From the NCBI GenBank assembly GCA_965203055.1, contig OZ241863.1:4000001-4064000 (forward strand): DNA of 64,000 nucleotides. The letters run 5' to 3'. Under the pieces are notes generated by a model, which saw only the letters and a program-made list of their open reading frames with translations, was not told the DNA's origin and searched no databases. Within the stretch, counting starts at the first letter, position 1. Every line of letters begins with the position of its first letter. The stretch is from Spirochaetia bacterium (GTDB lineage Bacteria > Spirochaetota > Spirochaetia > SZUA-6 > Bin103). The translations under genes and the position numbers were made by a program. Positions 5,945 through 44,099 of the stretch are shown in pieces.

Positions 5945-6754
5945 TTATACATGGTCCCGGACATGCAGCGCCCGCTTCTTGATCTCGCGACGGATGTAGT
6001 GCTTCTCCGGCTCATCCAGCCAGCGATTCAACCGGGACCCGCAAGTCATAAGCAACTTACCGTCCAACTGCGGTGGAATTGGAGAGTTCTGTTGGATCTC
6101 GGCCAGTTCCTCCAAATGATCTTCAACGAACTTGACCACACATTCCGCAAGCTTGTCCCGGACTTCCGCATGGACAGATTCGACATCCGAGGCCATACTG
6201 TCGCCAGCGTTGAATTCGCCCCTTTGAGCCATAAATGTCTCGACGTCCGCTTTATGCCACTCCACAGTAGTATCTGACTCCTGCTTGAGAGCCGCTGATT
6301 GGTTCTTGCTGCTCGTTGCAATCCCAACCAAATGTACGCGGACGCCAAAACTCTGGGCAATCTGTACGCCAATTCTTGTATCTTCGTCTCCAGACAGCAG
6401 GACGGCGTCCGAAACGGCGCGATTGCGGGCCAAGTCGATCAGATCCGTGACAACCAGGGAGTCCACACCTTTCTGCTTACCATGGGGAGTGACGACCCCG
6501 AGGCGCAGCTTTACATCATCAGCATCCGCGATGCGTCTATGCTCATTTGATAGCTGCCTCACTAAGGCGCCATCGTACCAATAGATGCGCAACAGCTTCG
6601 CGCCGTCGCTCAACGCGTTGGCCGCCTCTTTCAGTTTGTCGATCACAGCCGAAACGTCGAGTGATACGTTATCTCGAGGTAGTGTCTCGCCGAAACAGGC
6701 GGACGAGCCGGCCGCATACAAATATCCAGCGTCGACAAAGACAGCAACGCGCAA
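5945..6754 (-). CDS. NYN domain (LabA/DUF88, PIN-like) nuclease
   Basis: VFVDAGY, RIYWYDG, KQKGVD, LLSGDED and GVRVHLVGI; TTG start at 6754 with GAGG upstream; lower GC than flanks. Confidence 0.9.
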   Translation of the reverse strand: MRVAVFVDAGYLYAAGSSACFGETLPRDNVSLDVSAVIDKLKEAANALSDGAKLLRIYWYDGALVRQLSNEHRRIADADDVKLRLGVVTPHGKQKGVDSLVVTDLIDLARNRAVSDAVLLSGDEDTRIGVQIAQSFGVRVHLVGIATSSKNQSAALKQESDTTVEWHKADVETFMAQRGEFNAGDSMASDVESVHAEVRDKLAECVVKFVEDHLEELAEIQQNSPIPPQLDGKLLMTCGSRLNRWLDEPEKHYIRREIKKRALHVRDHV

Positions 6755-6775
6755 AGTATACCTCGTTAACGTAAG

Positions 6776-6798
6776 GAGGGTCCCCGCAGGGGACCCTC
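6776..6798. promoter_or_regulatory. perfect 10-bp hairpin in the 5' leader of the NYN gene
   Basis: GAGGGTCCCC-GCA-GGGGACCCTC, about 22 nt upstream of the TTG start. Confidence 0.5.
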
Positions 6799-6918
6799 TA
6801 TTGGGCCCACGCTCCAACCTAGGTATATTGCCGGGAGACGCTGGACTCTCATCAATATGCCCCACGACCGAACGGTAGTCAAGGGCTGGGCTGAGAACCT
6901 GACCTGACCATCTGCAGG

Positions 6919-7761
6919 TCAACTGCCGGTGGAGCTGTAGTGGCGGACGCCGACGTGCCAGAGCAGCAGGGCGGCGGCCAGGAACAGGGGCGCGGCCGCG
7001 GGGGCGGCCCAGCCGAACCAGTGCGGCGTGCCGAGCGGGTCGGGGCGGCCGAGGAGCGCTGCTACCGGGAAGTAGGTGACGGTGCCGACCGGCACCACGT
7101 AGAACAGGAAGCGGCGCAGGAAGCCGCGGTAGACGGTAGCGGGGTAGCTGCCGGCATCGACCGCGCCGTTGGTGACGATGGCGAACACCTCCAGCGACTG
7201 GATGGTCCAGAAGGTGATCGCCGCGGTGGCGACGAACACGCCCAGGAACAGCACGGTGACCGCGGCTGCGGTTTCCACCAGCAGCAGCGCCCGCGCCGGC
7301 GTCCACGGGATCGCCGCCGCGGCCAGGCCCCAGGTCAGGATCGCCGCCGCCTGCAGCCAGCGTCCCAGGCGCGCGAAGGCGAACTCGGCGCCCGCCACCT
7401 GCAGCACGGTGTTGCGCGGGCGCAGCAGCAGGCGGTCGAACTGGCCGCCGCGCACTTGGCGATGGAACATGTCGAAGCCGCGGCCGACCATCTCCGCGGT
7501 CGAGAAGCCGAGCATGACCAGCCCGTAGAGGATGGCGACCTCCGGCAACTCCCAGCCGCGTACGTTGCCGAACCGGCGCAGCAGCGCCCACACGCCCACG
7601 AACTCCACCGCGGTGATCAGCAGGGTTCCGGTCACCTGCAGGGCGAACGCCGCCGGGTACTGCAACTGCGCGCGGACCTGGGCGGCGACGTAGCGCCGGT
7701 AGAGCCGGCCGGCATCGCCCAGCGCCGCCCAGCCGGCAGGCAGCCGAGCGCTACCCGCCAA
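6919..7761 (-). CDS. ABC-2 family transporter permease
   Basis: Multi-TM protein with GQFDRLLLRP and a C-terminal YSSTGS typical of this family. Confidence 0.88.
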   Translation of the reverse strand: MAGSARLPAGWAALGDAGRLYRRYVAAQVRAQLQYPAAFALQVTGTLLITAVEFVGVWALLRRFGNVRGWELPEVAILYGLVMLGFSTAEMVGRGFDMFHRQVRGGQFDRLLLRPRNTVLQVAGAEFAFARLGRWLQAAAILTWGLAAAAIPWTPARALLLVETAAAVTVLFLGVFVATAAITFWTIQSLEVFAIVTNGAVDAGSYPATVYRGFLRRFLFYVVPVGTVTYFPVAALLGRPDPLGTPHWFGWAAPAAAPLFLAAALLLWHVGVRHYSSTGS

Positions 7762-16653: not shown

Positions 16654-16706
16654 CGGCCTCTCGCCGGCGCCGGGGATTCGGCAATGCGGTATGATTGGCA
16701 GCAGCC

Positions 16707-18029
16707 ATGAGTCACACCGAACCTCTGCGTGCAGCCGCGCCGCCGCGGCTTGCCATCTTCCTGGCGGCCGCGTGCCTGCTGTTGCTGGGGTGCACCGCAT
16801 CCATGCCGGCGCAGGACCCTGCGCCGGCTGCGCCGGACCCCGCGGACCCTGCGCCGGCTGCGCCGGACCCCGCGGCCCCTGCGCCGGCTGCGCCGGACCC
16901 CGCGGCCCCTGCCGGCGCGCCCAACCACATCGCCGAGCTCGCGGCCGCGGTCGAGATCTGCCGGGTGCCCAATCCGCATCACCCCGACTCCGCGTTCGAC
17001 GTCACCAAGTCCTCAAAGGACCGCCATGGCGACTACTACATGACGTGGCAATGCCGGGAACCGTGTGACGACTGGCGCCAGTGCCACGTAGAGGCGCGCG
17101 CCAAGCGCGGCACCGTGCGCCGGGCGCTGGCGTTCGTGGTCGACGGCATGGGCGGCCACGTGGCCTACACCACCAGCCAGCGCGGCGACCGGACGCTGCT
17201 GCTGCACGGCGGCATGGGCGGCACCAACTACCTGCAGCCCCTGGCCGAAGCGATCGAGCGGAATTCGGACGCCGGCACCGTCATGGTGCGCTGGGAGCCG
17301 GGCTTCGAGCGGGTCTGGGGCTGGTTCACCCGCACCTCGGCGGCAGCGTCGGGGATGCCGGCGGCCAACAAGCGCGTCGCCAGCGTCATCGCCTGGGTGC
17401 ACGAGCACCTGGCCGGGCCCGGCGAGTTCGGCACCGTCGGCTGCAGCATGGGCACGGTGGCCACGTTCGGCGCCGTCTACTGGCACGACGTGGACGAGGT
17501 GGTGGACTACCAACTGTTCAGCGGCGGCCCCGCCCTGTGGGACATCAACGCCGGCTGCGGCCTGCGCACCTACTCCGAGGGCCGGTGCGACGTGGACGCC
17601 GGCGTCACCTGCAGCACCGACGCCGACTGCAGCCAACTCGGGCCGGGCAGCCGCTGCGACGTGCCCCGTCCGATACCGCCGTTCCGGTTGTACCGGCAGG
17701 TGGTCAATCACGTGCACGCCACGCCGGCCTGCGCCATTCCGGGCGACGGCGAAGACTTCATCCCCTACGCCCCCTTCGACCGGAGCAGCTTCGCCTTCAG
17801 CGGCGGCGACTGGGACCTCGACCATCCGGTGGACTTCGCCATGGACGTGCGCGGCGGCGACGGGGACGAGAACTGGGCGTTGGGAGACACGATGCGCGTG
17901 TTCGAAGACATCCGGTCGGCGGCCGGACATGACAAGCGCTGGCACGCCACCGTCAACTCCAACCACTGCGCGGCGCTGTTCGACGGCACCGCGCTGGAGA
18001 TGATCCTGGAGCGCATGGACCTGCGCTGA
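16707..18029 (+). CDS. secreted lipoprotein with putative alpha/beta-hydrolase core and Cys-rich insert
   Basis: Lipobox-like LLLGC, Pro/Ala repeat linker, LLLHGG, VGCSMG and a C-terminal His (NHC). Confidence 0.6.
   Translation: MSHTEPLRAAAPPRLAIFLAAACLLLLGCTASMPAQDPAPAAPDPADPAPAAPDPAAPAPAAPDPAAPAGAPNHIAELAAAVEICRVPNPHHPDSAFDVTKSSKDRHGDYYMTWQCREPCDDWRQCHVEARAKRGTVRRALAFVVDGMGGHVAYTTSQRGDRTLLLHGGMGGTNYLQPLAEAIERNSDAGTVMVRWEPGFERVWGWFTRTSAAASGMPAANKRVASVIAWVHEHLAGPGEFGTVGCSMGTVATFGAVYWHDVDEVVDYQLFSGGPALWDINAGCGLRTYSEGRCDVDAGVTCSTDADCSQLGPGSRCDVPRPIPPFRLYRQVVNHVHATPACAIPGDGEDFIPYAPFDRSSFAFSGGDWDLDHPVDFAMDVRGGDGDENWALGDTMRVFEDIRSAAGHDKRWHATVNSNHCAALFDGTALEMILERMDLR
16814..16912 (+). repeat. 30-bp coding tandem repeat, about 3.3 copies
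   Basis: GG(A/C)CCCTGCGCCGGCTGCGCCGGACCCCGC at 16814, 16844 and 16874, with a partial copy at 16904. Confidence 0.9.
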
Positions 18030-18046
18030 GCGCCCGGCAGGCGTCC

Positions 18047-18991
18047 ATGACCTTCAACACGACCAACACCACCTTTCGCCAGTTGATGGGCAACGGGCTG
18101 AGCTATCGCGTGCCGCCGTTTCAGCGCGACTACTCCTGGGGACCCGACGAGTGGGACGACCTGTGGAACGACCTCGCGGAGCCGGCCCACTACCTGGGGT
18201 ACTTGGTACTGCAATCGACCGACAACCGGACGTTCGCGATCATCGACGGACAGCAGCGCATGACCACGCTCAGCCTGCTGATGCTGGCCGCGGTGGCGCA
18301 CCTCACCGAACTGGCCGCTCCGGACACCGCCGACGACCCGGAACTGCGGCGCGCCGCGCAGCTGCGCGCCAACTACCTGGGTTACCTCGACCCGGTGAGC
18401 CTGGTGCCGCGCTCCAAGCTGACGCTCAACCGCAACGACGACCGCTTCTACCAGGACTACCTGGTGCCGCTCGAACGCCTGCCGCAGCGGGGATTGAATC
18501 ACCACCTCGGCGGAGCGGCGGACACGATCAGGGAACTGCGCAGCGTCTACCCTGACGACGGCGAGTTCCGGGCGGCCTTCGCCGACAAGGAGCTGCGCAC
18601 CACCAGCAGCCGCAACCGCAAGGTGGCGCGGTATCTGCTGTTCCGGCTGGAACGCCACGTATCAGGAGAGGACTTCGACTTCGAGAGCGCGCAGTACGAC
18701 CTGGAGCACGTGCTGCCGGAGTGGCCCGGCGAAGCCTGGGAGCAGTTCGACGACCGGCAGCGCGAATCGTTCACCTACCGGCTCGGCAACCTCACGCTGC
18801 TGGCCGCGGCCGACAACCGCGCCGCGGGAAACGCCGACTTCGCCGCAAAGCGCCCCACCTACGGCGACAGCCGATTCGCCGTTACGCGCAAGATCGCGGG
18901 AGATTACGATGCCTGGACCGTCGACAAGATCGCCTCCCGGCAGCGCTGGATGGCGCGCCAGGCGACCAGCATCTGGCGCCTGGACTTCTGA
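18047..18991 (+). CDS. DUF262 + DUF1524 (GmrSD-like, HNH) protein, internally shortened
   Basis: VPPFQRDYSW, IIDGQQR, DLEHVLP and LGNLTLL; only 314 aa and no FxxxN motif seen. Confidence 0.82.
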   Translation: MTFNTTNTTFRQLMGNGLSYRVPPFQRDYSWGPDEWDDLWNDLAEPAHYLGYLVLQSTDNRTFAIIDGQQRMTTLSLLMLAAVAHLTELAAPDTADDPELRRAAQLRANYLGYLDPVSLVPRSKLTLNRNDDRFYQDYLVPLERLPQRGLNHHLGGAADTIRELRSVYPDDGEFRAAFADKELRTTSSRNRKVARYLLFRLERHVSGEDFDFESAQYDLEHVLPEWPGEAWEQFDDRQRESFTYRLGNLTLLAAADNRAAGNADFAAKRPTYGDSRFAVTRKIAGDYDAWTVDKIASRQRWMARQATSIWRLDF

Positions 18992-18996
18992 ATCCG

Positions 18997-21900
18997 ATGG
19001 ACGCCAGCGAGAAGTTTCAGCATCTGTTGCGGGAGCTCTTTCAGTTCGATTGCGCTGACCTGGATTTCGGCATCTACCGGATCATGAACCACAAGCGCGG
19101 CGTGATCGAGAATTTCATCGCCGAAGACCTGCCGCGCACTGTCGCGGACGAGCTGCAGCGCGGCCCGCTGGCCGATCAGGCGCAGGCCGTCGAGCGCCTG
19201 CAGGAGCTTGCCCGGCAGATCCGGGATGTCCTGGGCGGGAATGCGCTCGACGCAGACGGCAACTTGGCGGTGACGTATCGAGACACCCCTTTGGGCAGGA
19301 AATACCTTCGGGCGAAGCGGACCGGCGGCCTCAGCCGGGACACGCTCGAGGCAGCCATCTACAACCATCTGTATGCGTTCTTCAGCCGCTACTATCAGGA
19401 CGGTGACTTCATCTCGAAGCGGCGCTACTCCGGAAGCCAGCGCTACGCCATTCCCTACAACGGCGAAGAGGTCTATCTGCACTGGGCGAACAAGGACCAG
19501 TACTACGTAAAATCCGACGAGCATTTCCGCAACTACACCTTCACGCGGCAGGGCGTCAGCGTGCACTTCACGGTACGGAACGCGAACGTGGAACAGAACG
19601 ACGTCAAGGGCGACAAGCGGTTCTTCCTGCCGCAGGTCGCAGAGATCACCTGCGATGCGGAAGCCGGCCGTGTGCTGATCCCGTTCGAATACCGGCCCCT
19701 GACCGGCCGGGAGGAGACCGTCTACGGCCGCAGGAACCAGCAAGAAGCGATCATCCGCTCCGCCCTGACCGAGATTCCCCGACGGTTGCGCGGCGCCGAC
19801 GCGGCGGTAGCGGCGCTGACGGCCGAGCGCCACCGCAACGGCGAAGGCCGGCCGGTTGATTTCCTCGAGTACCACCTCCGCCGCTACACGCGGCGCAATT
19901 CCTCCGACTTCTTCGTTCACAAGAACCTGCGGGGGTTCCTCACACAGGAGCTCGATTTCTATCTGAAGAACGAGGTGCTCGACCTGGATGAAATCACCGC
20001 CGTCGGCGACGACGTGGCCGAAGGTTGGTTCCAGCTCATGCGGACGATCAAGGCGGTGGGCGGGCGCATCATCGAGTTTCTGGATCAGATCGAGAGCTTC
20101 CAGAAGATGCTGTGGGAGAAGCGCAAGTTCATCACCGAGACCCAGTACTGCATCACCATCGGCACCATCGACAGGAGCTTCTATCCCGACATCGCCGCCT
20201 GCGACCCGCAGTGGGCGGAATGGAAGGGACTGTTCCAAATCGACGAGGATGCGGTGAATCTGTTCAACTGCAATGGCGACCGCACTGACCGGCGCGTGTC
20301 CTTCCTGGAAACCCATCCGACGCTGGTACTCGATACCCGGCACTTCGATTCCGGCTTCGTGGATCGGTTGCTCAACGACGTGGATCACGTCGACGATCGA
20401 ACCGATGGTCTGTTGATTCACAGCGAGAACTTTCAGGCGCTCGGCCTGTTGCGCGAATCCTACCGCAACAGGGTCGAATGCGTATACTTGGATCCGCCAT
20501 ACAATACCGGTGACTCGGAGATTCTCTACAAGAACGAGTATCTTCTTTCTTCCTGGTTGACGATGATGGAAAACCGACTCTCTCTCATGATGGGATTACT
20601 CAACGAGGATCCCGTTCTATTCATCGCGATTGACGATTTTGAGATGGTCGATCTCTGTGGACTGATCGACAAGCACTATCCGTTCTTCCGTCGCGAGATG
20701 ATCATCGTCAATCACCACCCCCAGGGCGGCAAGGCGACGCTGTTGGCGAACACCCATGAGTACATGATCAGTTGCGTAAGCAAGGCTTCAGGTCGGACCT
20801 TGGTGGGACGTATCGCGAAAGACGGCGATGAACTTCGACCATTCAAGCGCAGCGGGACCGCTGCGAGCAATTTCCGCTACGCGCGGCCGAACAGCTTCTA
20901 CTCCTTACTGGTCGACCCGGAGACCAGGGCCGTCGTCGGCGCGGAGCCTCCTCCGGCAAGGAATAGTAACGAGTACCCGCGCGGCAATACCGAAGAAGGA
21001 TATGTCCGAGTCTATCCATTGGGAACTCAGGGTGAGGAGCGGGTCTGGCGCCGCTCGTATGAGTCGTGCCTGCCGCTGATCAGAAGCGGCAAGCTGCAGT
21101 GTAGCAACGGCATGACCATCTACCACCGCATCGAAGTGCAGGATCGCAGCGCCGCATTGTTCAGCAACTGGGTCGATTCACGATATAATGCCGGCACCTT
21201 CGGCGCCAATCTGCTTGGCGACATTATCGGAGCCAACAACTCTTTTTCCTACCCGAAGTCGGTTCACACCGTCGGCGACGCCATCTTCGGAGCAGGTATC
21301 GAAGACGACTCCTGTTGTGTCGATTTCTTCGCCGGATCGGGTACGACCGGGCACGCGGTAATCAATCTGAACCGTGAGGATGGCGGAGATCGCAAGTTCA
21401 TCCTGGTCGAGATGGGCCGCCATTTCGATACGGTATTGATGCCGCGCATCAAGAAAGTGACGTTCACCCCGGAGTGGAAAGATGGGAAGCCGGTGCGGAT
21501 GGCGACCCGGGACGAGGCTGAACGCGGCCCGCGCATCGTCAAGTACCATCGCCTGGAGAGCTACGAGGACGCGCTGAACAACATCGCTTTCGACGATGCG
21601 GCCGGTCAGCAGGCGCTGCGGTTCGACGATTACCTGCTCAAGTACCTGCTCAGGTGGGAGACGCGCACCAGCGCGACCCTGCTGAACGTGGAGAAGCTGA
21701 ATCGGCCGTTCGATTACCGGCTGGACGTCCATGCCGACGGCCGGCGTCACGAACGGGTAGCGGACCTGCCGGAGACCTTCAACTACCTGCTGGGCCTGCG
21801 CGTGCAAACGCGCCGCGTGCACCACGACGAAGGGCGCCGCTATCTGGTCTATCGCGGCAGCGTCGAAGACCGGACGACGGTGGTCATCTGGCGGGAGACG

Positions 21901-22068
21901 GAGGGCTGGCGGAAGGAAGAGCTGATTCGGGACAAGGAGTTCGTGACCGAACGGGACCTGACCGCCGGAGCGGACGCGGTGTTCGTCAACGGCGATTCCT
22001 TCATCCCGAACGCGAAGGCCCTGGAGCCGGTGTTCAAGGCGCGGATGTTCGCGCCGTTGGGAAACTGA
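18997..22068 (+). CDS. mod: Type III R-M methyltransferase subunit (Mod1)
   Basis: LFQFDCADLDFGIYRIMN N-terminus, YLDPPYN (motif IV), YPKS, DFFAGSGTTGHAV (motif I) and LESYEDALNN; lies upstream of res. Confidence 0.92.
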   Translation: MDASEKFQHLLRELFQFDCADLDFGIYRIMNHKRGVIENFIAEDLPRTVADELQRGPLADQAQAVERLQELARQIRDVLGGNALDADGNLAVTYRDTPLGRKYLRAKRTGGLSRDTLEAAIYNHLYAFFSRYYQDGDFISKRRYSGSQRYAIPYNGEEVYLHWANKDQYYVKSDEHFRNYTFTRQGVSVHFTVRNANVEQNDVKGDKRFFLPQVAEITCDAEAGRVLIPFEYRPLTGREETVYGRRNQQEAIIRSALTEIPRRLRGADAAVAALTAERHRNGEGRPVDFLEYHLRRYTRRNSSDFFVHKNLRGFLTQELDFYLKNEVLDLDEITAVGDDVAEGWFQLMRTIKAVGGRIIEFLDQIESFQKMLWEKRKFITETQYCITIGTIDRSFYPDIAACDPQWAEWKGLFQIDEDAVNLFNCNGDRTDRRVSFLETHPTLVLDTRHFDSGFVDRLLNDVDHVDDRTDGLLIHSENFQALGLLRESYRNRVECVYLDPPYNTGDSEILYKNEYLLSSWLTMMENRLSLMMGLLNEDPVLFIAIDDFEMVDLCGLIDKHYPFFRREMIIVNHHPQGGKATLLANTHEYMISCVSKASGRTLVGRIAKDGDELRPFKRSGTAASNFRYARPNSFYSLLVDPETRAVVGAEPPPARNSNEYPRGNTEEGYVRVYPLGTQGEERVWRRSYESCLPLIRSGKLQCSNGMTIYHRIEVQDRSAALFSNWVDSRYNAGTFGANLLGDIIGANNSFSYPKSVHTVGDAIFGAGIEDDSCCVDFFAGSGTTGHAVINLNREDGGDRKFILVEMGRHFDTVLMPRIKKVTFTPEWKDGKPVRMATRDEAERGPRIVKYHRLESYEDALNNIAFDDAAGQQALRFDDYLLKYLLRWETRTSATLLNVEKLNRPFDYRLDVHADGRRHERVADLPETFNYLLGLRVQTRRVHHDEGRRYLVYRGSVEDRTTVVIWRETEGWRKEELIRDKEFVTERDLTAGADAVFVNGDSFIPNAKALEPVFKARMFAPLGN
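19010..20370 (+). repeat. outer inverted repeat arm (mod1 5' conserved region), pairs with ~26925-28098
   Basis: Near-identical to the reverse complement of the mod2 5' region; includes a 62-bp perfect match (20166-20227 vs 27036-27097). Boundaries approximate. Confidence 0.9.
21451..22060 (+). repeat. inner inverted repeat arm (mod1 3' conserved region), pairs with ~25239-25828
   Basis: Perfect stretches of 53 bp (21517-21569) and 55 bp (21670-21724) versus mod2; identity ends at GCGCCGTTGG. Confidence 0.9.
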
Positions 22069-22070
22069 CG

Positions 22071-25000
22071 GTGCCCCGGCGAAGGGGCGTCAGCGGCGCC
22101 GCCCGCGAGTCCGGCGCGGCGCCGCACGTGAGGCTGGAACAGCGGCTGGTGCTGCTGTCCTGGCTGAACGGGCTGCTCGGCTACCGGAGCAACCGTGACC
22201 TGCTGCGCGATCTGAAGGAGGCCCCGGAAGGGTTCGACGCGGCCGGACGCAGCCATCTCTACCACCGGCTGACGGCGCGCGGCGAGCTGCAGGTGCCGGC
22301 GGCCGATCTGGCCCGATACGACGACAACGTCCGCGCGCACCTTGACGCCATGAACGCCCGCCGCTCCGAGCCGATCACGCTGCGCTACTTTCAGCACGCC
22401 GCGCTCCTCCATACCGAGCTGTTCCTGGATCGATACTTCCATGGCCGGGGTGAGCTGATCCGCTCGCTGAACCGGTTCGCGGCGGACCGGAACGCTACCC
22501 GGCCGTTCGCCGACCCCGCCCCGCGCGACGCCGACTTCACGCAATCGGACCTGAAGAAGCTGGCGTTCTGGATGGCGACCGGCAGCGGCAAGACGCTCAT
22601 CATGCACGTCAACTACCGCCAGTTCCTGCACTACCACCGCCGGCCGCTCGACAACGTCCTGCTGATCACGCCGAACGAGGGCTTGAGCGAGCAGCATCTG
22701 GCGGAGCTGGCCGCCTCGGACATCCGGTGCCGGAGCTTCGACCCGGACGAGAGCGGTCTCATGACGGCCGGGGAGGATGAGGTCCGGGTCATCGAGATCA
22801 CCAAGCTGGTGCAGGAGAAGCGCGGCGGCGGCGTGAGCGTGCCGGTGGAGGCCTTCGAGGGCAACAACCTGATCTTCGTGGACGAGGGGCACAAGGGCTC
22901 CGGCGGCGCCGCGTGGCGCAGCTTCCGCGACGCGCTGGGCGAGACCGGCTTCACGTTCGAGTACAGCGCCACCTTCGGGCAGGCGCTGAGCGCGGCGCGC
23001 AACGACCAGCTCACCGCCGAGTATGGCAAGTCGATCATCTTCGACTACTCGTACCGCTACTTCCACGGCGACGGATACGGCAAGGACTTCCACGTGCTCA
23101 ACCTGCAGGAGGAAGCGGCGGAGGATAGAACCGACCTGCTGCTGCTCGGCAACCTGCTCTCTTTCTACGAGCAGCGGCGGCTGTTTGCGCGGCAGGCGGC
23201 GGCGCTGCGCCCGTACCACCTGGAACGCCCGCTGTGGGTGTTCGTCGGCAGCACCGTGAACGCGGTCTACACCGAGTTCGGCCGGAAGCGCAGCGACGTG
23301 CTCACGGTAGTCCGATTCCTGCACCGCGTATTGGAGAACCGGCGGGGCTGGGTGGTCGGGGCCATCGAGGAGCTGCTCGCCGGCCGGAGCGGTCTGACCG
23401 CGCCGGACGGACGGGACGCGTTCGGCGATCGATTCAAGTATCTGCGCGAAGAATCCCTGTCGGCCGCGGCCGTGTACCGGGACCTGCTCGCTACGGTGCT
23501 GCACGCGCCGGCGGGAGGCGGCCTGCACCTGTGCGCCATCCGCGGCAGCGCCGGTGAGATCGGACTGAAGGCGAGCGGCGCCGAACACTACTTCGGACTG
23601 ATCTACGTCGGCGACGCCGCCGCCTTCAGGAAACTCGCCGCGGCCGACGACTGCGGAATGACGTTGGAAGAGGACGTGGTCAGCGGCTCGCTGTTCGACG
23701 CCATCGGCCGTCCGGCCACCACCATCGACGTGCTGATCGGGGCGAAGAAATTCATGGAGGGCTGGAACTCGTGGCGGGTGGCGAGCATGGGACTGCTCAA
23801 CATCGGCCGCAAGGAGGGATCGGAGATCATCCAGCTCTTCGGGCGCGGCGTGCGCCTGCGGGGCAGGGGACGCAGCCTGAAGCGAAGCGCGGCGCTGGCC
23901 GGCCGGCATCCGGCCCATCTCGGCCTGCTGGAGACGCTCAACGTGTTCGCCGTGCGCGCCAACTACATGACGCAGTTCCGCGCGTACCTGGAACGGGAAG
24001 GGATCGAGACCGAAGGTGACGTCGAGTTGCCGCTCGGCATCAGGACGAACCGGGACTTCCTGCGCCGGGGCCTGGTCGTACCTCGGGTGCCGGAGGAGCG
24101 GAACTTCGCCGCCGAGGCGTATCTCCTGCTGGAGCCGGAGCGGGACCTCCGGGTGCGCGTGGACCTGTCGCTCAAGGCGCAGTCCCTCGAAAGCGGCGCC
24201 GGCGGCCTCACCGCGGTTGCGATGCGCGGCGGCCGGGAGGTGGAAATACCGGACGAAAGTCTCGAGCTCGTCGATTGGCAGCGGGTCTACCTGGAGCTCC
24301 TCGAATACCGGGAACGCAGGGGCTACGCCAACCTCGTCATTCGGCCGGAAACGGCCCGGACGATCATGGAGACGTCCCACCCCGGCCGGCTCTACCGCCT
24401 GACCGCCGACGAGTCAATTGTCGCGCCGACTTCCTTCGCCGGCGCCGAACCGCTCCACGAGGCGGTGCTCTCCATCCTGCGGCACTACCTGGACCGGTTC
24501 TATCGCGTCCGCCGGGAGCGCTGGGAGGCGCAGCACATGGTGTACGCGGAGCTCGACGAGGAGCATGCGAACTTCCGGGACTACACCGTCCGGATCGCCC
24601 GCAGCGAAGTCGAGCTGATCGACGCGATTCAGAAGCTCATCGCCGAAGCGGACCGCATCTACCGGCAGGAGACGCAGGAGTTGCCGGCCGTTCACTTCGA
24701 CCGCCACCTGTACCAGCCGCTGCTGGTGGAGCGCGGCGCCAAGGTACGGAGCGACCCGCCGGGCCTCAACGAGGCGGAACGTCGGTTCGTCGAGGATCTG
24801 CGGCAGTACTGTTTGGCGGAGCGCGACGGATCGCTCGCCGGCAAGGAAATCTATCTCCTGCGCAACCTGAGCAAGGGGAAGGGGATCGGATTCTTCGAGC
24901 GGCGCGGCTTCTATCCCGACTTCATCCTGTGGATCAAGGCCGGCTCCGCGCAGCGCATCGTCTTCGTCGAACCGCACGGCCTGCTGCACGCCGAGGCGTA

Positions 25001-25265
25001 CCGGCATGACGACAAGGCGCGGCTGCACGAATCCCTGCCGGGACTGGCCGCGGCGATGGCGTCACGCACCACGCTGAAGAACGTGACCCTCGACTCCTTC
25101 ATCGTCTCCGCGACCCCCTACGAAGAGGTGCGCACCAGATATGATGACGGCACCTGGGACCGGGAGCGTTTCGGAGACCGGCACATCCTGTTCCGCGAAG
25201 CCGATCCCCGCGGCTACGTCGCCCGGATCGTCACCCCTCCAACGGCGCGAACATCCGCGCCTTGA
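22071..25265 (+). CDS. res: Type III R-M restriction subunit (SF2 helicase + PD-(D/E)xK-like nuclease)
   Basis: MATGSGKT, VDEGHK, YSATF, EGWN, QLFGRGVRL and FYPDFILW...FVEPHG; GTG start 2 nt after the mod1 stop (alternative 22128). Confidence 0.92.
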   Translation: MPRRRGVSGAARESGAAPHVRLEQRLVLLSWLNGLLGYRSNRDLLRDLKEAPEGFDAAGRSHLYHRLTARGELQVPAADLARYDDNVRAHLDAMNARRSEPITLRYFQHAALLHTELFLDRYFHGRGELIRSLNRFAADRNATRPFADPAPRDADFTQSDLKKLAFWMATGSGKTLIMHVNYRQFLHYHRRPLDNVLLITPNEGLSEQHLAELAASDIRCRSFDPDESGLMTAGEDEVRVIEITKLVQEKRGGGVSVPVEAFEGNNLIFVDEGHKGSGGAAWRSFRDALGETGFTFEYSATFGQALSAARNDQLTAEYGKSIIFDYSYRYFHGDGYGKDFHVLNLQEEAAEDRTDLLLLGNLLSFYEQRRLFARQAAALRPYHLERPLWVFVGSTVNAVYTEFGRKRSDVLTVVRFLHRVLENRRGWVVGAIEELLAGRSGLTAPDGRDAFGDRFKYLREESLSAAAVYRDLLATVLHAPAGGGLHLCAIRGSAGEIGLKASGAEHYFGLIYVGDAAAFRKLAAADDCGMTLEEDVVSGSLFDAIGRPATTIDVLIGAKKFMEGWNSWRVASMGLLNIGRKEGSEIIQLFGRGVRLRGRGRSLKRSAALAGRHPAHLGLLETLNVFAVRANYMTQFRAYLEREGIETEGDVELPLGIRTNRDFLRRGLVVPRVPEERNFAAEAYLLLEPERDLRVRVDLSLKAQSLESGAGGLTAVAMRGGREVEIPDESLELVDWQRVYLELLEYRERRGYANLVIRPETARTIMETSHPGRLYRLTADESIVAPTSFAGAEPLHEAVLSILRHYLDRFYRVRRERWEAQHMVYAELDEEHANFRDYTVRIARSEVELIDAIQKLIAEADRIYRQETQELPAVHFDRHLYQPLLVERGAKVRSDPPGLNEAERRFVEDLRQYCLAERDGSLAGKEIYLLRNLSKGKGIGFFERRGFYPDFILWIKAGSAQRIVFVEPHGLLHAEAYRHDDKARLHESLPGLAAAMASRTTLKNVTLDSFIVSATPYEEVRTRYDDGTWDRERFGDRHILFREADPRGYVARIVTPPTARTSAP

Positions 25266-28101
25266 ACACCGGCTCCAGCGCCTTCGCGTCCGGGATGAAG
25301 GAATCGCCGTTGACGAAGACCGCGTCCGCCCCGGCGGTCAGGTCCCGTTCGGTCACGAACTCCCTGTCCCGGATCAGCTCCTCCTTCCGCCAGCCCTCCG
25401 TCTCGCGCCAGATGACCACCGCGGTCCGGTCTTCGACGCTGCCGCGATAGACCAGATAGCGGCGCCCGTCGTCGTGGTACACGCGGCGCGTCCGCACGCG
25501 CAGTCCCAGCAGGTAGTTGAAGGTCTCCGGCAGATCCGCGCCGGCATCGACGCCCAGCCGGTAATCGAACGGCCGATTCAGCTTCTCCACGTTCAGCAGG
25601 GTCGCGCTCGCGCGCGTCTCCCACTTGAGCAGGTACTTGAGCACGTAGTCGTCGAACTGCAGCGCCCGCTGGCCTGCCGCATCGTCGAACGCGATGTTGT
25701 TCAGCGCCTCCTCGTAGCTCTCCAGGCGATGGTACTTGACGATGCGCGGGCCGCGTTCAGCTTCGTCCCGGGTCGCCGTCCGCGCCGGCTTCCCGTCCTT
25801 CCACTCCGGCGTGAACGTGACCTTCTTCATTCGCGGCAGGAGAATGGCATCGAACTGGCCGCCGACTTCGACCAGGACGAACCTGCGCCGCGCGCCGTCG
25901 TCCCGGTTCAGGCGCATGACCGCGTGGCCGGTCGTGCCCGAGCCGGCGAAGTAATCCAACACCAGGCCGTCGGTTCCGTCCGCGGCGGCGCCGATCAGGT
26001 CGGCGTAGAATGACACCGGGTGCGCGTAGGGGAAGTCGTTCAACCCGAGCGAATCGAGCTCCGATTTGCCCCTCCTCGCATCCTGAAGCACGGAGGGAAG
26101 CTGACGGCTCGATGATTCGCGCAGCAACCGTTTCTGGCGTGGCTGCGTACTCTCGTCCGCTCCGAACAGTATTTCTCCCTGCGCCATCATCTCGCGCAGC
26201 GTAGCCGGCGTTCTCGAGAAGCCGTTGGGCGGAACCGGGCACGGCCGGCCGGTCGCCGGGTGTATCAAGGGCTCGAAGAACTTGGGATCCGTTCTCGGTT
26301 CCGGCGCCCGCAGACTCACGCTCGTGTATACCCTGCCCTCGTCGTCGAGATAGCGATACGCCTTCTCGCCGCCGCTCAGGGCATCGTTCCGGCGTATCCA
26401 GTCGGCGAATTGCGCTCTTGCCTGCTGCAGGGAAGCGGGATACTTGCGCACCAACTCCTTCGCCCGGTCCAGAATCGACTGCGCGTGACTCGTCCGCAGG
26501 TTGAGCGCGCGGTCCGACTTCGTTCTCCATATGACGTACTCGTGCTGAATCGCAATCCCGCCGCCCCCGGTCATCGGATTCCTCTTGTCCCAGACGATCG
26601 TGCCGGCGTTGGGGATGCCCAGTCGCTCGAACAGCAGGTGGAGCCGTTCGTACTCGTTCTCGTCGATGTGGCAGACCAACGAACCGCGGTCGTTCAGGAG
26701 CGCCGCGGCGCGGCGCAGGTGCTGCTCCATCATCGTCAGCCAGCTCGAATGCCGGTATGCGTTCTTGTACAGAAAACCGCTCGTCTGCGTATTGTAGGGA
26801 GGATCGACGTGTATGCAGCTTATCGTTCTCCGGTATGCGGCGTGCAGCAAGCTCAGTGCCTGGGTGTTGTCGCCATGCATCAGCAGACCGTCCAGCACGT
26901 CGTCCAGATCGTCGATACTGCCGATCAGGCGGTCGACGAAGTCGGGCGCGAAATGCCGGGTGTCGAGTACCAGCGCCGGATGGGTTTCCAGGAAGGTCAG
27001 GCGCCGGGCCGTGCGGTCGTCGATGCGGAACAGCTCCTTCCATTCCGCCCACTGCGGGTCGCAGGCGGCGATGTCGGGATAGAAGCTCCTGTCGATGTTG
27101 CCGACCGTGATGCAGTACCAGGTCTCGGTGATGAACTTGCGCTTCTCCCACAGCATCTTCCGGAAGCTCTCGATCTGATCCAGGAACTCGATGATCCGCC
27201 CCCCGACCGCCTTGATCGCCCGCATGACCTGGAACCAGTCTTCGGCCCGGCTCTCCCCGGCGGCCGCCAGCTCGTCCAGATCGAGCACCTCGTTCTTCAG
27301 ATAGAAATCGAGCTCCTGGGTGAGGAACCCCCGCAGGTTCTTGTGGATGAAGAAGTCGGAGGCGTTGCGCCGCGTGTAGCGGCGGAGGTGGTATTCCAGG
27401 AAGTCGACCGGCCGCCCGTCGCCGTTGCGGTGGCGCTCCGCCGTCAGCGCTGCCAGCGCCGCGCCGGCGCCACCCAACCGCCGGGGAATCTCGGCCAGGG
27501 CGGAGCGGATGATCGCCTCCTGCCGGTTCCTGCGGCCGTAGAAGGTCTCCTCCCGGCCGGTCAGGGGCCGGTATTCGAACGGGATCAGCACGAGCCCGGC
27601 TTCCGCGTCGCAGGTGATCTCCTCGACCTGCGGCAGGAAGAACCGTTTGTCGCCCTTGACGTCGTTCCGTTCCACGTTCGCGGCCCGCACCGTGAAGCGC
27701 ACGGTGACGCCCTGCCGCGCGAAGGCGTAGTCGCGAAAGTGCTCGTCCGACTTGACGTAGTACTGGTCGTCGTTCGCCCAGTAGAGATAGACCTCTTCGC
27801 CGTTGTAGGGAATGGCGTAGCGCTGCCGCCTGGAGTAGCGCCGCTTCGAGATGAAGTCGCCGTCCTGATAGTAGCGGCTGAAGAACGCGTGCAGATGGTT
27901 GTAGATGGCCGCCTCGGGCGCCTGCGCCTGGCCGGCGAGCGGACCGCGTTGCAGCTCCTCCGCGATGGTGCGCGGCAGGTCCTCGGCGATGAATGCCTCG
28001 ATCACGCCGCGCCGGTGGTTCATGATCCGGTAGATGCCGAAATCCAGGTCGGCGCAGTCGAACTGAAAGAGCTCGCGCAACAGATCCTGGAACTTATCCA
28101 A
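25231..28101 (-). CDS. mod: second Type III Mod (Mod2), convergent with res, with a different target-recognition region
   Basis: Paralogue of mod1 with HVDPPYN, YAHP and DYFAGSGTTGHAV. Start uncertain (TTG 28101 or ATG 28137). The 3' end overlaps res by 35 bp. Confidence 0.88.
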   Translation of the reverse strand: MDKFQDLLRELFQFDCADLDFGIYRIMNHRRGVIEAFIAEDLPRTIAEELQRGPLAGQAQAPEAAIYNHLHAFFSRYYQDGDFISKRRYSRRQRYAIPYNGEEVYLYWANDDQYYVKSDEHFRDYAFARQGVTVRFTVRAANVERNDVKGDKRFFLPQVEEITCDAEAGLVLIPFEYRPLTGREETFYGRRNRQEAIIRSALAEIPRRLGGAGAALAALTAERHRNGDGRPVDFLEYHLRRYTRRNASDFFIHKNLRGFLTQELDFYLKNEVLDLDELAAAGESRAEDWFQVMRAIKAVGGRIIEFLDQIESFRKMLWEKRKFITETWYCITVGNIDRSFYPDIAACDPQWAEWKELFRIDDRTARRLTFLETHPALVLDTRHFAPDFVDRLIGSIDDLDDVLDGLLMHGDNTQALSLLHAAYRRTISCIHVDPPYNTQTSGFLYKNAYRHSSWLTMMEQHLRRAAALLNDRGSLVCHIDENEYERLHLLFERLGIPNAGTIVWDKRNPMTGGGGIAIQHEYVIWRTKSDRALNLRTSHAQSILDRAKELVRKYPASLQQARAQFADWIRRNDALSGGEKAYRYLDDEGRVYTSVSLRAPEPRTDPKFFEPLIHPATGRPCPVPPNGFSRTPATLREMMAQGEILFGADESTQPRQKRLLRESSSRQLPSVLQDARRGKSELDSLGLNDFPYAHPVSFYADLIGAAADGTDGLVLDYFAGSGTTGHAVMRLNRDDGARRRFVLVEVGGQFDAILLPRMKKVTFTPEWKDGKPARTATRDEAERGPRIVKYHRLESYEEALNNIAFDDAAGQRALQFDDYVLKYLLKWETRASATLLNVEKLNRPFDYRLGVDAGADLPETFNYLLGLRVRTRRVYHDDGRRYLVYRGSVEDRTAVVIWRETEGWRKEELIRDREFVTERDLTAGADAVFVNGDSFIPDAKALEPVFKARMFAPLEG

Positions 28102-28129
28102 ATTGACGTGTAGGGGCTGATATTGGGCT

Positions 28130-28153
28130 TTACACATCAACTTGGATGTATAA
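28130..28153. promoter_or_regulatory. AT-rich imperfect palindrome at the 5' end of mod2
   Basis: TTACACATC-AACTTG-GATGTATAA: 9-bp arms with 1 mismatch and a 6-bp spacer. Confidence 0.4.
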
Positions 28154-28227
28154 GCCGGGCGCGGGTCGTTGCCGCTCCTGCCGGCGGACGGGTCCGCCGG
28201 CAGGAGGGAAGATCAGCCGAGCGCCGG

Positions 28228-29118
28228 CTAGTCGGCGTGGAAGATGGAGAACATCATCCGCCGCGCGTGGCTCGACAGGGAGTCGTAGTTCTGCCAACCG
28301 CTGTATTGCTCGAGCTTGATGGACCCCGGCAGCGTAGCGATCAGCCCGAACACGGCGAACGGCCCGCCCTCTTCCTGCGCCTTCGTCATCTGCCCCATCA
28401 CTACGTCGTAGAGATCGTTGTAGTACTGGGCATTGTCACGCAGCACCTGCGGGTCGGTCGACACCGAGTGGGTGGTCAGGGCGTGTTCCAAATCCCATTC
28501 GCCGATGGTATTCAGAATCCTGCGGGTTCCGGTGAAGTTCTTGTCATCAACCCAGTCGGAGCCGGTGAGCGCCTGGTCCTCGTACAGGTCGGCGGTCAAT
28601 ACCACCTTCTGCCGCGGCAGGTACACCACGGTGGTCGCATCGCCGTCGCCGGGGCCGAGGTAGTGCAGTTCCACCGGCGTATCGCCGACCATGATCCGCT
28701 TGTAGTTGATGAAGCTCTCGAACGATTGCGGCACGTCATTGAACGGCGCCTCCGCCAGCGCGAATACCGGCCGGCAGTTGACGTGACAATGCACCGTCGC
28801 GTCCGGGAACAGACTGGTCCCGCCGGCGTGATCGAAATGCTCGTGCGTCAGCACGACGTGCGAGATCGGACTGTCGGTGAGCGTGCCGACGAAGTCCTGC
28901 AGCATCGGCCCCCGCAGGTTGTTTGCCGGCTCGGTCACCAGCACCTCCTCTCCCGAAACGACGACCAGGCTGCCGTAGCCCAGCGCGAACCAGTAGTATA
29001 CGCCGTCGGCAAGCTGGTTGGTGACCGGCGGCGGCATCTGCTGCGCGTGCAGGTTTACCGTCACCCCGGCCAGCGCCGCCGCCAACAAGGCGGCCCCTTT
29101 CTTGACTATCTTGGTCAC
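28228..29118 (-). CDS. secreted MBL-fold metallo-hydrolase
   Basis: Signal peptide; THEHFDHAGG (HxHxDH); GAGGAGG RBS before the GTG. Confidence 0.88.
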   Translation of the reverse strand: MTKIVKKGAALLAAALAGVTVNLHAQQMPPPVTNQLADGVYYWFALGYGSLVVVSGEEVLVTEPANNLRGPMLQDFVGTLTDSPISHVVLTHEHFDHAGGTSLFPDATVHCHVNCRPVFALAEAPFNDVPQSFESFINYKRIMVGDTPVELHYLGPGDGDATTVVYLPRQKVVLTADLYEDQALTGSDWVDDKNFTGTRRILNTIGEWDLEHALTTHSVSTDPQVLRDNAQYYNDLYDVVMGQMTKAQEEGGPFAVFGLIATLPGSIKLEQYSGWQNYDSLSSHARRMMFSIFHAD

Positions 29119-41145: not shown

Positions 41146-43029
41146 TTGTCTTTGCAACCGCCCCGCAACGAATACCCGCGCCCGCAGTTCGCCCGCGAGG
41201 ATTGGCTCTGCCTCAACGGTTCCTGGCAGTTCGAGATCGACCAGGGAGACAGCGGCCTGGAGCGCGGGCTGCCGGAGCGCGATCTGAACGCCGTCATCAC
41301 GGTGCCGTTCTGTCCCGAGTCGCGGCTGTCGGGCATCGAAAACCACGACTTTCTCAACGCGGTCTGGTACCGGCGCCGCGTGACCATTCCGCCCGCCTGG
41401 GCGGGCCGGCGCGCGCTGCTGCACTTCCAGGCGGTGGACCACGACGCCACCGTGTGGGTCAACGGCGTCGAGGCCGGGCGCCACCGGGGCGGGTTCTCGC
41501 CTTTCAGTTGCGACCTGAGCGGCGTGGCCGCGGCCGGGGACGAGGCGGTGATCACGGTGCGCGCCCGCGACACCCGCGAGCGGCCGCAGCCGCGCGGCAA
41601 GCAGGCGCGGGATTACGCCCCGAGCGGCGCCATCTACGCGCGCACCACCGGCATCTGGCAGACGGTATGGATGGAGCCGGTGCCGGACCTCGCGCTACGC
41701 CGGCCGCGGTTGACGGCGGACTTGGCCAACGGCGTCATCCGCCTGGAGCAGCCGATCACCGGCAACGCGCCGGGCCTGCGCCTGCGCGCCACGCTGAGCG
41801 ACGCGCAGGGCGAAGTCGTCACCGCCGAGTGCGCCGCCGACCTGGACCTGGCGCCGCGTCTGGACCTGCCGGTCCCGGCCGCGCGGCGCCGGTTGTGGGC
41901 GCCCGGCACGCCGCATCTCTACGACGTGGCCATCGCCCTGCTCGATGGTGACGGCAACCTGGTCGACGCCGCGGCCTCGTACAGCGCCCTGCGCGCCGTG
42001 AGCATTGACGGCAAGGCGATCAAGCTCAACGGTGAAGTGGTGTTTCAACGTCTGGTGCTGGATCAGGGCTACTATCCGGACGGCATCATGACGGCGCCGT
42101 CGGACGCGGCGCTGCGCCGCGACATCGAATTGAGCATGGCGGCCGGCTTCAACGGCGCGCGCCTGCACCAGAAGGTGTTCGAGGAGCGCTTCCTCTACCA
42201 TGCCGACCGGCTCGGCTACCTGGTGTGGGGTGAGTTCGGCGACTGGGGCTGCCGCGGCGAAGGGCCGCTCGACGGCGAGCATCAGCAGCCGGGCGCGGAC
42301 TACGTTACCCAGTGGCTGGAGGTGCTGGAGCGGGACTATTCGCATCCGTGCATCGTCGGCTGGTGCCCGCTCAATGAGACCTGGCAGGCGCTCGGCGACC
42401 GTCTCACGGTACTGGACGACGTGACCCGCGGCATGTTCCTCGCCGCCAAGGCGATCGACACCAGCCGGCCGGTGCTGGACGCCTCCGGCTACGCGCACCG
42501 CGTCCCGGAGGCCGACGTCTACGACAGCCACGACTATTCCCAGGACCCGGACCAGTTGGCGCGGAACCAAGCCGGGCTGGCGCACGGCGCGCCCCACCGG
42601 AACAGCGCCGCCGCCTGGGGCATGCCGGCGCGGACCGCGGCGCGGCTGGCCGGCGCGCTGCAGTGGTCGATCGCCTACCGCGGGCAGCCCTACTTCGTCA
42701 GCGAGTTCGGCGGCATCTGGTGGAACCCGGATCTGGCCGCCGGCGAAGAGTCGTGGGGCTACGGCGAGCGCCCGCAGACCATCGAGGAGTTCTACCTCCG
42801 GTTCGAGCGGCTGTGCGCGGTGTTGCTCGACAATCCGGACATGTTCGGCTACTGCTACACCCAGCTCACCGACATCTACCAGGAGCAGAACGGCATCTAC
42901 AAGTTCGACCGTTCCGGCAAGTTCGACCTCGCGCGCCTGCGCGCCGCCCAACAGCGCCCGGCGGCCATCGCGCGGCGCGGCGCGGCGCCGCCCCGCGCCC
43001 CGCGCGCATCGGATATGGTCACCCCATGA
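41146..43029 (+). CDS. glycoside hydrolase family 2 (beta-galactosidase/glucuronidase-like)
   Basis: YPRPQF, LNGSWQF, LDQGYYPDG, WCPLNE and SEFGG. Confidence 0.9.
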   Translation: MSLQPPRNEYPRPQFAREDWLCLNGSWQFEIDQGDSGLERGLPERDLNAVITVPFCPESRLSGIENHDFLNAVWYRRRVTIPPAWAGRRALLHFQAVDHDATVWVNGVEAGRHRGGFSPFSCDLSGVAAAGDEAVITVRARDTRERPQPRGKQARDYAPSGAIYARTTGIWQTVWMEPVPDLALRRPRLTADLANGVIRLEQPITGNAPGLRLRATLSDAQGEVVTAECAADLDLAPRLDLPVPAARRRLWAPGTPHLYDVAIALLDGDGNLVDAAASYSALRAVSIDGKAIKLNGEVVFQRLVLDQGYYPDGIMTAPSDAALRRDIELSMAAGFNGARLHQKVFEERFLYHADRLGYLVWGEFGDWGCRGEGPLDGEHQQPGADYVTQWLEVLERDYSHPCIVGWCPLNETWQALGDRLTVLDDVTRGMFLAAKAIDTSRPVLDASGYAHRVPEADVYDSHDYSQDPDQLARNQAGLAHGAPHRNSAAAWGMPARTAARLAGALQWSIAYRGQPYFVSEFGGIWWNPDLAAGEESWGYGERPQTIEEFYLRFERLCAVLLDNPDMFGYCYTQLTDIYQEQNGIYKFDRSGKFDLARLRAAQQRPAAIARRGAAPPRAPRASDMVTP

Positions 43030-43859
43030 AGTCACTCGACGATCACTTGGCCGAGTTCAAGCGCGACGGGTTCACGCTGTTCCGGGGGCTGTTCGACACG
43101 GCGTGGGTAGAGGAGTTGCGGGCGGCGTTCGACGAGCTCGCCGGCCGCATCCCCGGCGCCGACGGCAGCCGCCCTTCGGTCGTGGTGGACGTGCTGGAAC
43201 ACAAGCCGGAGCTGGTGCTGCCGGCGTTGTCCAACGTCCGGCTGCTCGATTTCGCCGAGCTGGTGGTCGGCCCCCACGTCCAGCTCGAGTCGATCACCTA
43301 CCGGCGTACCGCGCCGCAGAGCGCGGCCGACGGCGACGTGTTGGGGTTCCATCGCGACATGTTCGCGTTCTTCCCCGAGGAGGGCGTCTATCACCGCCCG
43401 CTGCTGTTCAACGCCTTGACCTACCTGCAGGATCTGACCGACGAATCCGGGCCGTTGCGGATCATTCCGGGCTCGCACATGCGCGCCATGCGCATGACCC
43501 GAGCGGAGGCGCGGCGGCCGCATCCCGAGGAGGTGATCGTCTATCCGCAGGCCGGTGACGCCGCCGTGTTCCACTGCAGCATGCTCCATTCCGGGACCGC
43601 CAACCGCTCCCGGGACTACCGCTACCTGTTCTTCCTGACGCTCAACCATTCGTGGCTGAAGCACCGCGCGAACTACCGGGGACCGGTGTCGCAGGCAGTG
43701 ATCGCCGGAGCGCGGGCGCGCAACGACCGGCGCCTGCTGCGCCTGCTGGGGGTCGACGATCAATTCGTCCAGCGCGCCAATTGCGGCTTCCTGGAGCCGG
43801 ACGAGGAGAACTGGAAGCGCTGGATCGCCGACGACGCCGCGGCCCGCGCCGCGCCGTGA
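43026..43859 (+). CDS. phytanoyl-CoA dioxygenase (PhyH) family Fe(II)/2OG oxygenase
   Basis: FKRDGF, FHRD (HxD), IPGSH and LHSGTAN. Confidence 0.88.
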   Translation: MKSLDDHLAEFKRDGFTLFRGLFDTAWVEELRAAFDELAGRIPGADGSRPSVVVDVLEHKPELVLPALSNVRLLDFAELVVGPHVQLESITYRRTAPQSAADGDVLGFHRDMFAFFPEEGVYHRPLLFNALTYLQDLTDESGPLRIIPGSHMRAMRMTRAEARRPHPEEVIVYPQAGDAAVFHCSMLHSGTANRSRDYRYLFFLTLNHSWLKHRANYRGPVSQAVIAGARARNDRRLLRLLGVDDQFVQRANCGFLEPDEENWKRWIADDAAARAAP

Positions 43860-44099
43860 GTCAGCTTTGCCGGGCACTGCCACACGCTTCGTCCCGCCCC
43901 GGTCCTTTCGTTCGCCCTGGACGCGAACGAAAGCGCCCGGTACCATTAGCCAGCAGCCACCCTGAGGAGACCTTCGATGATTCGTTACATCGACACCGCT
44001 CGTACCATCAGCCTGCTCGCGGGATGGCCGTTCGTCGCCGGCCAGACCAAGAGGCTCCAAGGCTGGTTCGCGCGCGGCGCCCGCCGCCACGATAGGCGG

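Follow-up and report, generated by a model that had tools for sequence, protein, structure and literature searches.

A Type III restriction-modification locus with one restriction gene between two inverted methyltransferase genes in a spirochaete genome

Can a restriction-modification (R-M) locus of Type III change its specificity by inverting its own DNA, or does an inverted second methyltransferase gene simply give one restriction subunit two specificities? The question is raised by a locus in a 64,000-nucleotide stretch, hereafter the window, of a Spirochaetia bacterium genome (GenBank assembly GCA_965203055.1, contig OZ241863.1, positions 4,000,001 to 4,064,000), in which a restriction gene, res, lies between two methyltransferase genes of opposite orientation, mod1 and mod2. 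The genome is a single 4.56-Mb contig, 96% complete, and the stretch is found mainly in sponge and marine metagenomes. A sequence-only reading of the window had proposed an invertible switch and, as its alternative, two Mods sharing one Res. The alternative fits better than the switch: the locus is probably a fixed dual-specificity system that was inverted by a one-off rearrangement, in which one Res is shared and short patches pass between the gene arms through RecA.

Layout of the locus and its inverted arms

Three open frames, mod1(+)-res(+)-mod2(-), were found where the sequence-only reading had placed them (Table 1). Both Mods have MTase_III as their best PADLOC match and are beta class, with motif IV (DPPY) before the target-recognition domain (TRD) and motif I (FAGSG) after it. 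The mod1 product is 92% identical to the Mod of a relative, G011. The GTG start of res at 22071 directly follows the mod1 stop at 22068, such that a mod stands immediately 5′ of res; mod2 is not upstream of res. Res carries GSGKT (Walker A), DEGH (Walker B), and a C-terminal PD...EPH of the PD-(D/E)xK type, the form found in 97 of 143 Res homologues. Relative to mod1, mod2 has three in-frame deletions of 52, 11, and 7 amino acids (aa), and a TTG at 28101 is nearer than the ATG at 28137 to the start used by homologues. The res and mod2 frames overlap by 35 bp, and comparison with the 3′ ends in G010, G011, G012, and G015 indicated that res has lost its own last codons, the final ~8 codons and the stop being supplied by mod2 antisense. 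A scan of 17901-28300 found no simple sequence repeat tract in either mod and only (GCG)4, in res; an NCBIfam search gave nothing over the cut-off. We conclude that the locus is a long-form Type III R-M system with two Mods and one Res, a known kind of system in an apparently undescribed arrangement.

The two mods share outer and inner arms in inverted orientation, and the longest perfect stretches within them are 62, 55, and 53 bp, in keeping with the range reported earlier. Between the arms, the TRD intervals of mod1 and mod2 are 33% identical as DNA, which equals background. The claim that the TRDs are unrelated was therefore upheld, but the variable part is not confined to the interval between DPPY and FAGSG: the module comprises the whole catalytic core plus TRD (mod1 aa ~443-820), and mod2 combines, as a mosaic, arms of the mod1 lineage with a core of modB type (aa ~443-820), modB being the first mod of tandem relatives described below. 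The sequence-only reading had suggested checking the methylome for two asymmetric N6-methyladenine (m6A) motifs. TRD2 aligns with the core of the EcoP15I Mod, an m6A enzyme; methylation may be N4-methylcytosine (m4C) as well as m6A (PMC8259958).

Table 1. Coordinates of the locus, its repeats, and its flanks in the window
Feature	Position	Strand	Remarks
GmrSD/DUF262-family gene	18047-18991	+	Pfam GmrSD_N, GmrSD_C; 732 bp lost internally, in frame, at 18496
mod1, long-form Type III methyltransferase	18997-22068	+	1023 aa; open frame; Pfam N6_N4_Mtase; PADLOC MTase_III, E 5.7e-188
mod1 motifs	DPPY 20491; FAGSG 21328	+	
Outer (5′) arm of mod1	19009-20373	+	inverted partner 26923-28098; 19195-19342 without partner
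TRD1	20629-21246	+	91% identity to the G011 TRD, 82% to that of G012 modA
Inner (3′) arm of mod1	21322-22060	+	inverted partner 25239-25956; mod2-type patch around aa 820-840
res, Type III helicase-nuclease	22071-25265	+	Pfam ResIII; PADLOC REase_III, E 1e-144
res/mod2 junction	25228-25238		10-11 bp microhomology around mod2 stop codon; putative inversion breakpoint
mod2, Type III methyltransferase	25231-28137	-	968 aa from ATG 28137; open frame; PADLOC MTase_III, E 4.8e-212
mod2 motifs	DPPY 26805; FAGSG 25950	-	
Inner (3′) arm of mod2	25239-25956	-	
TRD2	26008-26637	-	81-82% identity to the modB genes of G010 and G012; aligns with the EcoP15I Mod core, TRD included
Outer (5′) arm of mod2	26923-28098	-	
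Arm block	19009-19194/27913-28098	inverted	88% identity
Arm block	19343-20246/27017-27920	inverted	90% identity
Arm block	20270-20373/26923-27026	inverted	82% identity
Arm block	21322-21739/25539-25956	inverted	87% identity
Arm block	21760-22060/25239-25539	inverted	95% identity
hipBA-upstream relic	28096-28175	+	9-6-9 palindrome 28130-28153 overlapping mod2 upstream ATG
GC-rich hairpin between upstream gene and mod2	28175-28206		no T-run
Metallo-beta-lactamase-fold gene	28228-29118	-	Pfam Lactamase_B; upstream of mod2, same strand; flank, outside system

Crossovers were simulated in 10 perfect stretches of the arms; all 10 kept the frames open and four states resulted, as expected from the nested inverted-repeat geometry first described for the locus. 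Any inner crossover swaps the last residues of the two Mods and any outer crossover swaps their N-termini. An inner flip alone, which in the sequence-only reading moves res from behind TRD1 to behind TRD2, would not change specificity; only the transcript that carries res would differ. A change of specificity would require an outer flip together with a weak mod2 position.

Tandem relatives and the origin of the inverted layout

Sixty relatives were searched. In addition, 169 loci were compared (L026-L195; L186 was dropped as a duplicate of L027), 143 of which include the res 3′ end; the scans gave the best 80 of 590 and the best 80 of 226 matches. Relative G012 carries the same two TRDs in tandem, as modB(TRD2)-modA(TRD1)-res, and G010 carries a tandem modB(TRD2)-modA-res in which modA has another TRD. 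G011 has a single mod (TRD1) with res, the mod of G015 is gutted, and one related locus encodes a Res that is 95% identical. Tandem mods were seen in 3 of the 79 loci with room upstream. An opposite-strand mod was found in none of the 143 loci (118 with at least 1 kb downstream); the mod-res-inverted-mod synteny that the sequence-only reading had proposed to look for in related genomes did not appear in them.

Probable traces of a tandem past were found at both ends of mod2. The window res tracks the G011 gene to 25237 and then reads as mod2 antisense; the overlap at the junction matches the end of G010 modB at 10 of 11 bases, and the mod2 stop is at its ancestral place. Upstream of mod2 lies a relic (34 of 46 nucleotides matching, against a background of at most 28) whose only other genomic copy is upstream of a helix-turn-helix and HipA gene pair at G000:2288533, and in G011 a truncated hipA gene stands upstream of the mod in divergent orientation. 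The palindrome in the relic is presumably a HipB-type operator, a candidate label that we take from its gene context. By this match, the hipBA relic would mark mod2 as the former first gene of a tandem operon. Taken together, the tandem relatives, the microhomology at the junction, and the hipBA relic make it most likely that the inverted layout arose by one inversion of the mod1-res block.

Several other origins were considered. Descent of the short mod2 N-terminus with the modB genes of G010 and G012 was rejected, as the breakpoints differ and the flanks are mod1 type; short N-termini arose independently in loci L026, L028, L033, and L034. The palindrome at 28130 was rejected as a recombinase site, since there is no second copy at the locus and the only other copy lies upstream of hipBA. 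No source for the AT-rich stretch turned up in 23 family genomes, the junction pattern had 0 matches in viral contigs, and a plasmid search returned only distant Res matches (<60%). Gene order is scrambled across the family, with gmrSD, the lactamase-fold gene, and the upstream hypothetical gene each placed elsewhere in relatives.

Some features of these loci were noted in their own right. In G015, a mod 5′ end is fused in frame to a res 3′ end (L029:9132-9839) and nearly the whole locus is deleted. In G010, the tandem mods are separated by a 1-kb insert of 52% GC (L026:10291-11321) that contains a ~249-codon open frame, and an AAA_21 ATPase gene with a small partner follows res in convergent orientation. 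Accumulibacter has an independent tandem locus of two Mods and one Res (L148), the two mods of which begin almost identically. An intact Fic-hipB-hipA cluster lies 1.7 Mb away in the genome of the window (G000:C1:2286764-2289841; HipB-like protein at 2288062-2288415) and could regulate mod2 in trans.

Arm exchange, orientation, and the use of mod2

Synonymous divergence (dS) of the arms was 0.226 between mod1 and mod2, 0.219 between mod1 and the G011 gene, and 0.208 between mod2 and the G011 gene. Judged by these values, the arms are not homogenised over long time and are as diverged from each other as from the G011 gene; shared derived sites were likewise not in excess (6 versus 16 and 9). 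A Sawyer-type test in the window was weak (p 0.03 for the 5′ arm and 0.5 for the 3′ arm) and gave a signal no stronger than that between mod1 and G011.

Exchange was apparent on comparison of alleles. Among 120 matches listed, P0001-P0003 were the only proteins at least 97% identical to the mod2 core, and in a second listing of 120 P0121, with TRD1, was the only protein at 95%; the four are cluster representatives, the clusters comprising 28 sequences in all. TRD2 alleles vary more in the arms (57 of 571 sites) than in the core (15 of 352; p 0.0015). The mod1 residue is confined to one allele at 22 of the 51 informative sites, where 18% is expected for four alleles (p 3e-5, with sites that are not independent), and residue pairs private to mod1 occur in P0001 and P0003. 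Moreover, P0001 (TRD2) and P0121 (TRD1) share a substitution and a 1-aa insertion that are in none of the other seven aligned proteins, and the window mod1 has a mod2-type patch near aa 838. These patterns clearly point to short patches passing between the arms in both directions by homologous recombination, and the proposal that the arms can recombine was confirmed by the allele patches and the private indel common to the paralogues.

How the locus would have come about and would work can be outlined as follows. The ancestor would have been a tandem operon, hipBA (divergent) | mod2 -> mod1 -> res, in which one inversion of mod1-res joined the mod2 stop to the res 3′ end in antisense through short microhomology. 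By analogy with EcoP15I-type biology, mod1-res would be the main unit; mod2, expressed from the opposite side and probably at a lower level, would yield a Mod that methylates a second motif and may share this Res in trans. That Res would work with either Mod in trans is suggested by the Mod2Res1 architecture (PMC8259958) together with the 87-95% identity of the 3′ arms. Homologous recombination, presumably by RecA, would move short patches between the arms both ways, and since these events would mostly end without net exchange of flanks, the orientation would stay as assembled. A crossover between inverted copies would invert DNA rather than delete it, and the pair may thereby be protected from the loss seen in tandem relatives.

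Several points weigh against this account. A flip followed by a flip back at different points would likewise leave patches, the alleles are cluster representatives whose genomic context is unseen, and assemblies report the majority form. The reciprocal breakpoint between gmrSD and mod1 lacks the expected res tail, and thus a second event must be assumed. The mod2 arms are under relaxed selection (38 non-synonymous to 32 synonymous changes, versus 12 to 34 in mod1; p 0.004). A ribosome-binding site for mod2 was not apparent, and no promoter-like match was found between the flanking gene and mod2, the sole match on that strand being upstream of the flanking gene. Finally, the candidate operator lies over the mod2 upstream ATG.

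The strongest rival is a slow, RecA-driven inversion switch, in which arm crossovers would set TRD1 or TRD2 at the expressed site and move res, such that subpopulations would differ in methylome and restriction specificity; an outer flip alone would leave TRD2 expressed and res parked behind a weak start, a safe intermediate. The four intact states in the 10 simulated crossovers, the two-way exchange between arms, and the perfect tracts of up to 62 bp are compatible with such a switch, and the weak-looking mod2 start resembles the silent second hsdS in the available text of PMC7394358. An intact recA was found in the genome, and a dedicated invertase was not: PF00589 gave two adjacent genes only and PF00239 (serine resolvases) none, in a search confined to these two recombinase families. 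We take the PF00589 pair to be XerC/XerD-like from its gene context. The sequence-only statement that the window has no recombinase gene and that switching would need RecA or a trans-acting enzyme agrees with these counts, and the scarcity of recombinases in the searched families also tells against a switch.

Orientation data also argue against free switching. All four TRD2 alleles keep the start and end of mod2, and both TRD1 proteins (mod1 and P0121) keep those of mod1; free switching is unlikely with 6 of 6 close alleles in the assembled state, as the four non-window proteins alone would be expected about 1 time in 256 under even mixing, if independent. The 10% divergence of the arms, with the lack of excess shared derived sites, and the absence of the layout from all 143 loci also speak against it. 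Contigs of four metagenome runs (X1, X14, X15, and X19, from four studies, of 19 runs listed) were aligned to the locus; contigs cannot show rare orientations and break at repeats, and no single piece spans the whole locus. None of the 15 contig joints listed (of 37) proves an inverted state. Opposite-strand joints at 20150/25953 (X14) and 21763/25916 (X15) were set aside, as their sides are short, their middles are unknown, and they fit other alleles. Thus operation as a switch was not borne out, and we consider it unlikely.

A fuller version of the switch reading, which we regard as equally doubtful, is that the locus is a switch in the making: a chance inversion would have converted a tandem operon with two Mods into a specificity switch of four states, driven by RecA and without a recombinase. 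Just as tentatively, TRD1 and TRD2 would alternate at the expressed site, the parked copy would be repressed through the captured HipB-type operator, and a Res-off state would permit safe re-methylation. If true, no Type III system before it would have been shown to alter its specificity through inversion.

It is quite improbable that mod2 is a silent or decaying spare, with only mod1-res at work and mod2 at most a gene-conversion donor that replaces TRD1. The three deletions, the replaced native start, the raised ratio of non-synonymous to synonymous divergence (dN/dS) in the arms, and the possible repressor operator over the ATG would suit such a spare, and decay is frequent nearby, as in the gutted gmrSD here and the gutted mod in G015. 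However, the frame is open and DPPY and FAGSG are intact in four mod2 alleles whose cores are 97-98% identical, and dN/dS is 0.18-0.19 for the core against orthologues and 0.36 for the mod2 branch, well below 1. In the mod1 structure model (predicted local distance difference test score [pLDDT] 77), the deleted segments correspond to a helical hairpin, a loop, and the tip of a hairpin, and they include no invariant column of a 93-sequence alignment. Moreover, the short N-termini that arose independently elsewhere tell against decay, and a protein combining the mod1 start with TRD2 was not seen among the close alleles.

Last among the rivals is a chimera, assembled from the loci of two strains. 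The source was a mixed sponge community in which homologous alleles are numerous, and no one contig covers the entire locus, but contigs bridged its junctions. X1 record 5 (24102-25268, 21 other letters) goes from res 31 letters into the inverted mod end, a reach just at the bridging limit; the mod2 5′ end is linked to the lactamase-fold gene by three records (X14 record 16, X1 record 7, and X15 record 22); and X19 record 27 runs from gmrSD into mod1. X14 contigs match the window without differences in the bridging records, and X14 is possibly the source sample, such that its support is not independent. Three other assemblies encode near-identical mod2 proteins (P0001-P0003), to which the junction-derived N-terminus of mod2 is common. 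With the res-mod2 junction spanned, which the sequence-only reading had named as the place where a chimera would show, that explanation is already largely refuted and is highly improbable.

Run X19 had no cover on mod2 and a depth of ~2 on gmrSD-mod1-res, which is a hint of a mod2-less strain and not evidence of one. Its gmrSD-mod1-res contigs (18460-23189) are 99.8-100% identical to the window and its flank contigs ~90-96%, at the same depth a hint of recent transfer.

Known systems, flanking genes, and the rest of the genome

The locus resembles the EcoP15I type (Mod2Res1; PDB 4zcf) in having a beta-class Mod (DPPY, TRD, FAGSG) followed by a Res with Walker A and B and nuclease motifs, and the mod2 core aligns with the EcoP15I Mod including its TRD (E 1.7e-39). 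It differs in that its Mods are ~1000 aa with a long extra N-terminal part, that there are two of them, and that the second is inverted behind res. From the Eco86II/BspHIV m4C Type III group it differs, judged by gene context, in having no extra helicase-like ATPase gene 5′ of mod; the upstream genes are the GmrSD remnant and the lactamase-fold gene.

The available portions of the literature describe several partial parallels. Mycoplasma multi-mod Type III loci (M. bovis Mbo45V with one res and three mods; M. agalactiae 5632 with two tandem mods) likewise combine one res with more than one Mod, the Mods having conserved ends but differing in their TRDs. Those loci are turned ON and OFF by (GA)n repeats and the two M. 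agalactiae mods stand in tandem, whereas here neither mod has such a repeat tract and one of the two is inverted. Invertible Type I hsdS loci (SpnD39III, S. suis, and P. gingivalis; Atack 2020, PMC7394358) share opposite-strand specificity duplicates, inverted repeats, and a poor second start; unlike them, the present locus is Type III, its repeats are gene arms of 82-95% identity, no recombinase is at the locus, and the alternative states are unobserved. Programmed inversions of BREX PglX, DISARM DrmMI, and Type II Cj0031-like genes (Milman 2023, PMC9881135) also have inverted homology flanking specificity regions, in some methyltransferase loci without a nearby recombinase, but those inversions were confirmed by intraspecies variation and long reads. 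In the available text of that paper "Type III" occurs only in a reference, and one supplementary file held no match; its candidate tables could hold Type III cases. Conversion-like movement of Type III TRDs in H. pylori (Furuta and Kobayashi 2012, PMC3467074) is comparable to the mod2 mosaic, which crosses just before the core and just after FAGSG, but as far as the available text describes, the H. pylori events join distant loci through short motifs and not adjacent paralogues with kilobase arms.

Reviews, in their available parts, present phase variation in Type III systems as ON/OFF switching through simple repeats, and assign recombinational switching of specificity to Type I (PMC13076061, PMC7394358). 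The literature search, which most subscription journals and REBASE lay outside, found no paper on a Type III locus whose second mod is inverted or that switches by inversion. The locus has the geometry for Type III specificity switching, a reconstructable tandem-operon origin, and measurable arm exchange, and on it the beginnings of invertible specificity loci can be tested directly. Should no flipping occur, the locus is still an unusual means of retaining two specificities with a single Res, neither being lost by deletion.

Flanking genes were compared as well. Full-length gmrSD copies lie elsewhere in G011 and G012, and by that comparison a rearrangement placed the GmrSD/DUF262 gene beside mod1. 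At 18496, contigs from X1 and X14 continue with extra sequence; other strains thus appear to keep the full gene, and the deletion would be strain level. The lactamase-fold gene adjoins no R-M genes in G010 or G011. On the far side of gmrSD, 16695-18029 encodes a 444-aa lipoprotein-like protein with no Pfam match and a PAAPD-type repeat at 16814-16912, with homologues in G010, G011, G012, and G015.

The same genome holds a second, more distant long-Mod mod-res pair at 36% identity (G000:C1:1557900-1564033; L035) and shorter mod homologues at 43005-44093 and 1192106-1193170. Its gene order is scrambled almost gene by gene relative to same-family genomes, and, besides this locus, it has eight inverted matches between paralogues that are 300 bp or longer and lie within 20 kb (e.g., 1336219-1347134, 96%). 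Low-GC stretches lie at 6001-7000 (57%) and 44001-46000 (51-53%), against 69% GC for the genome.

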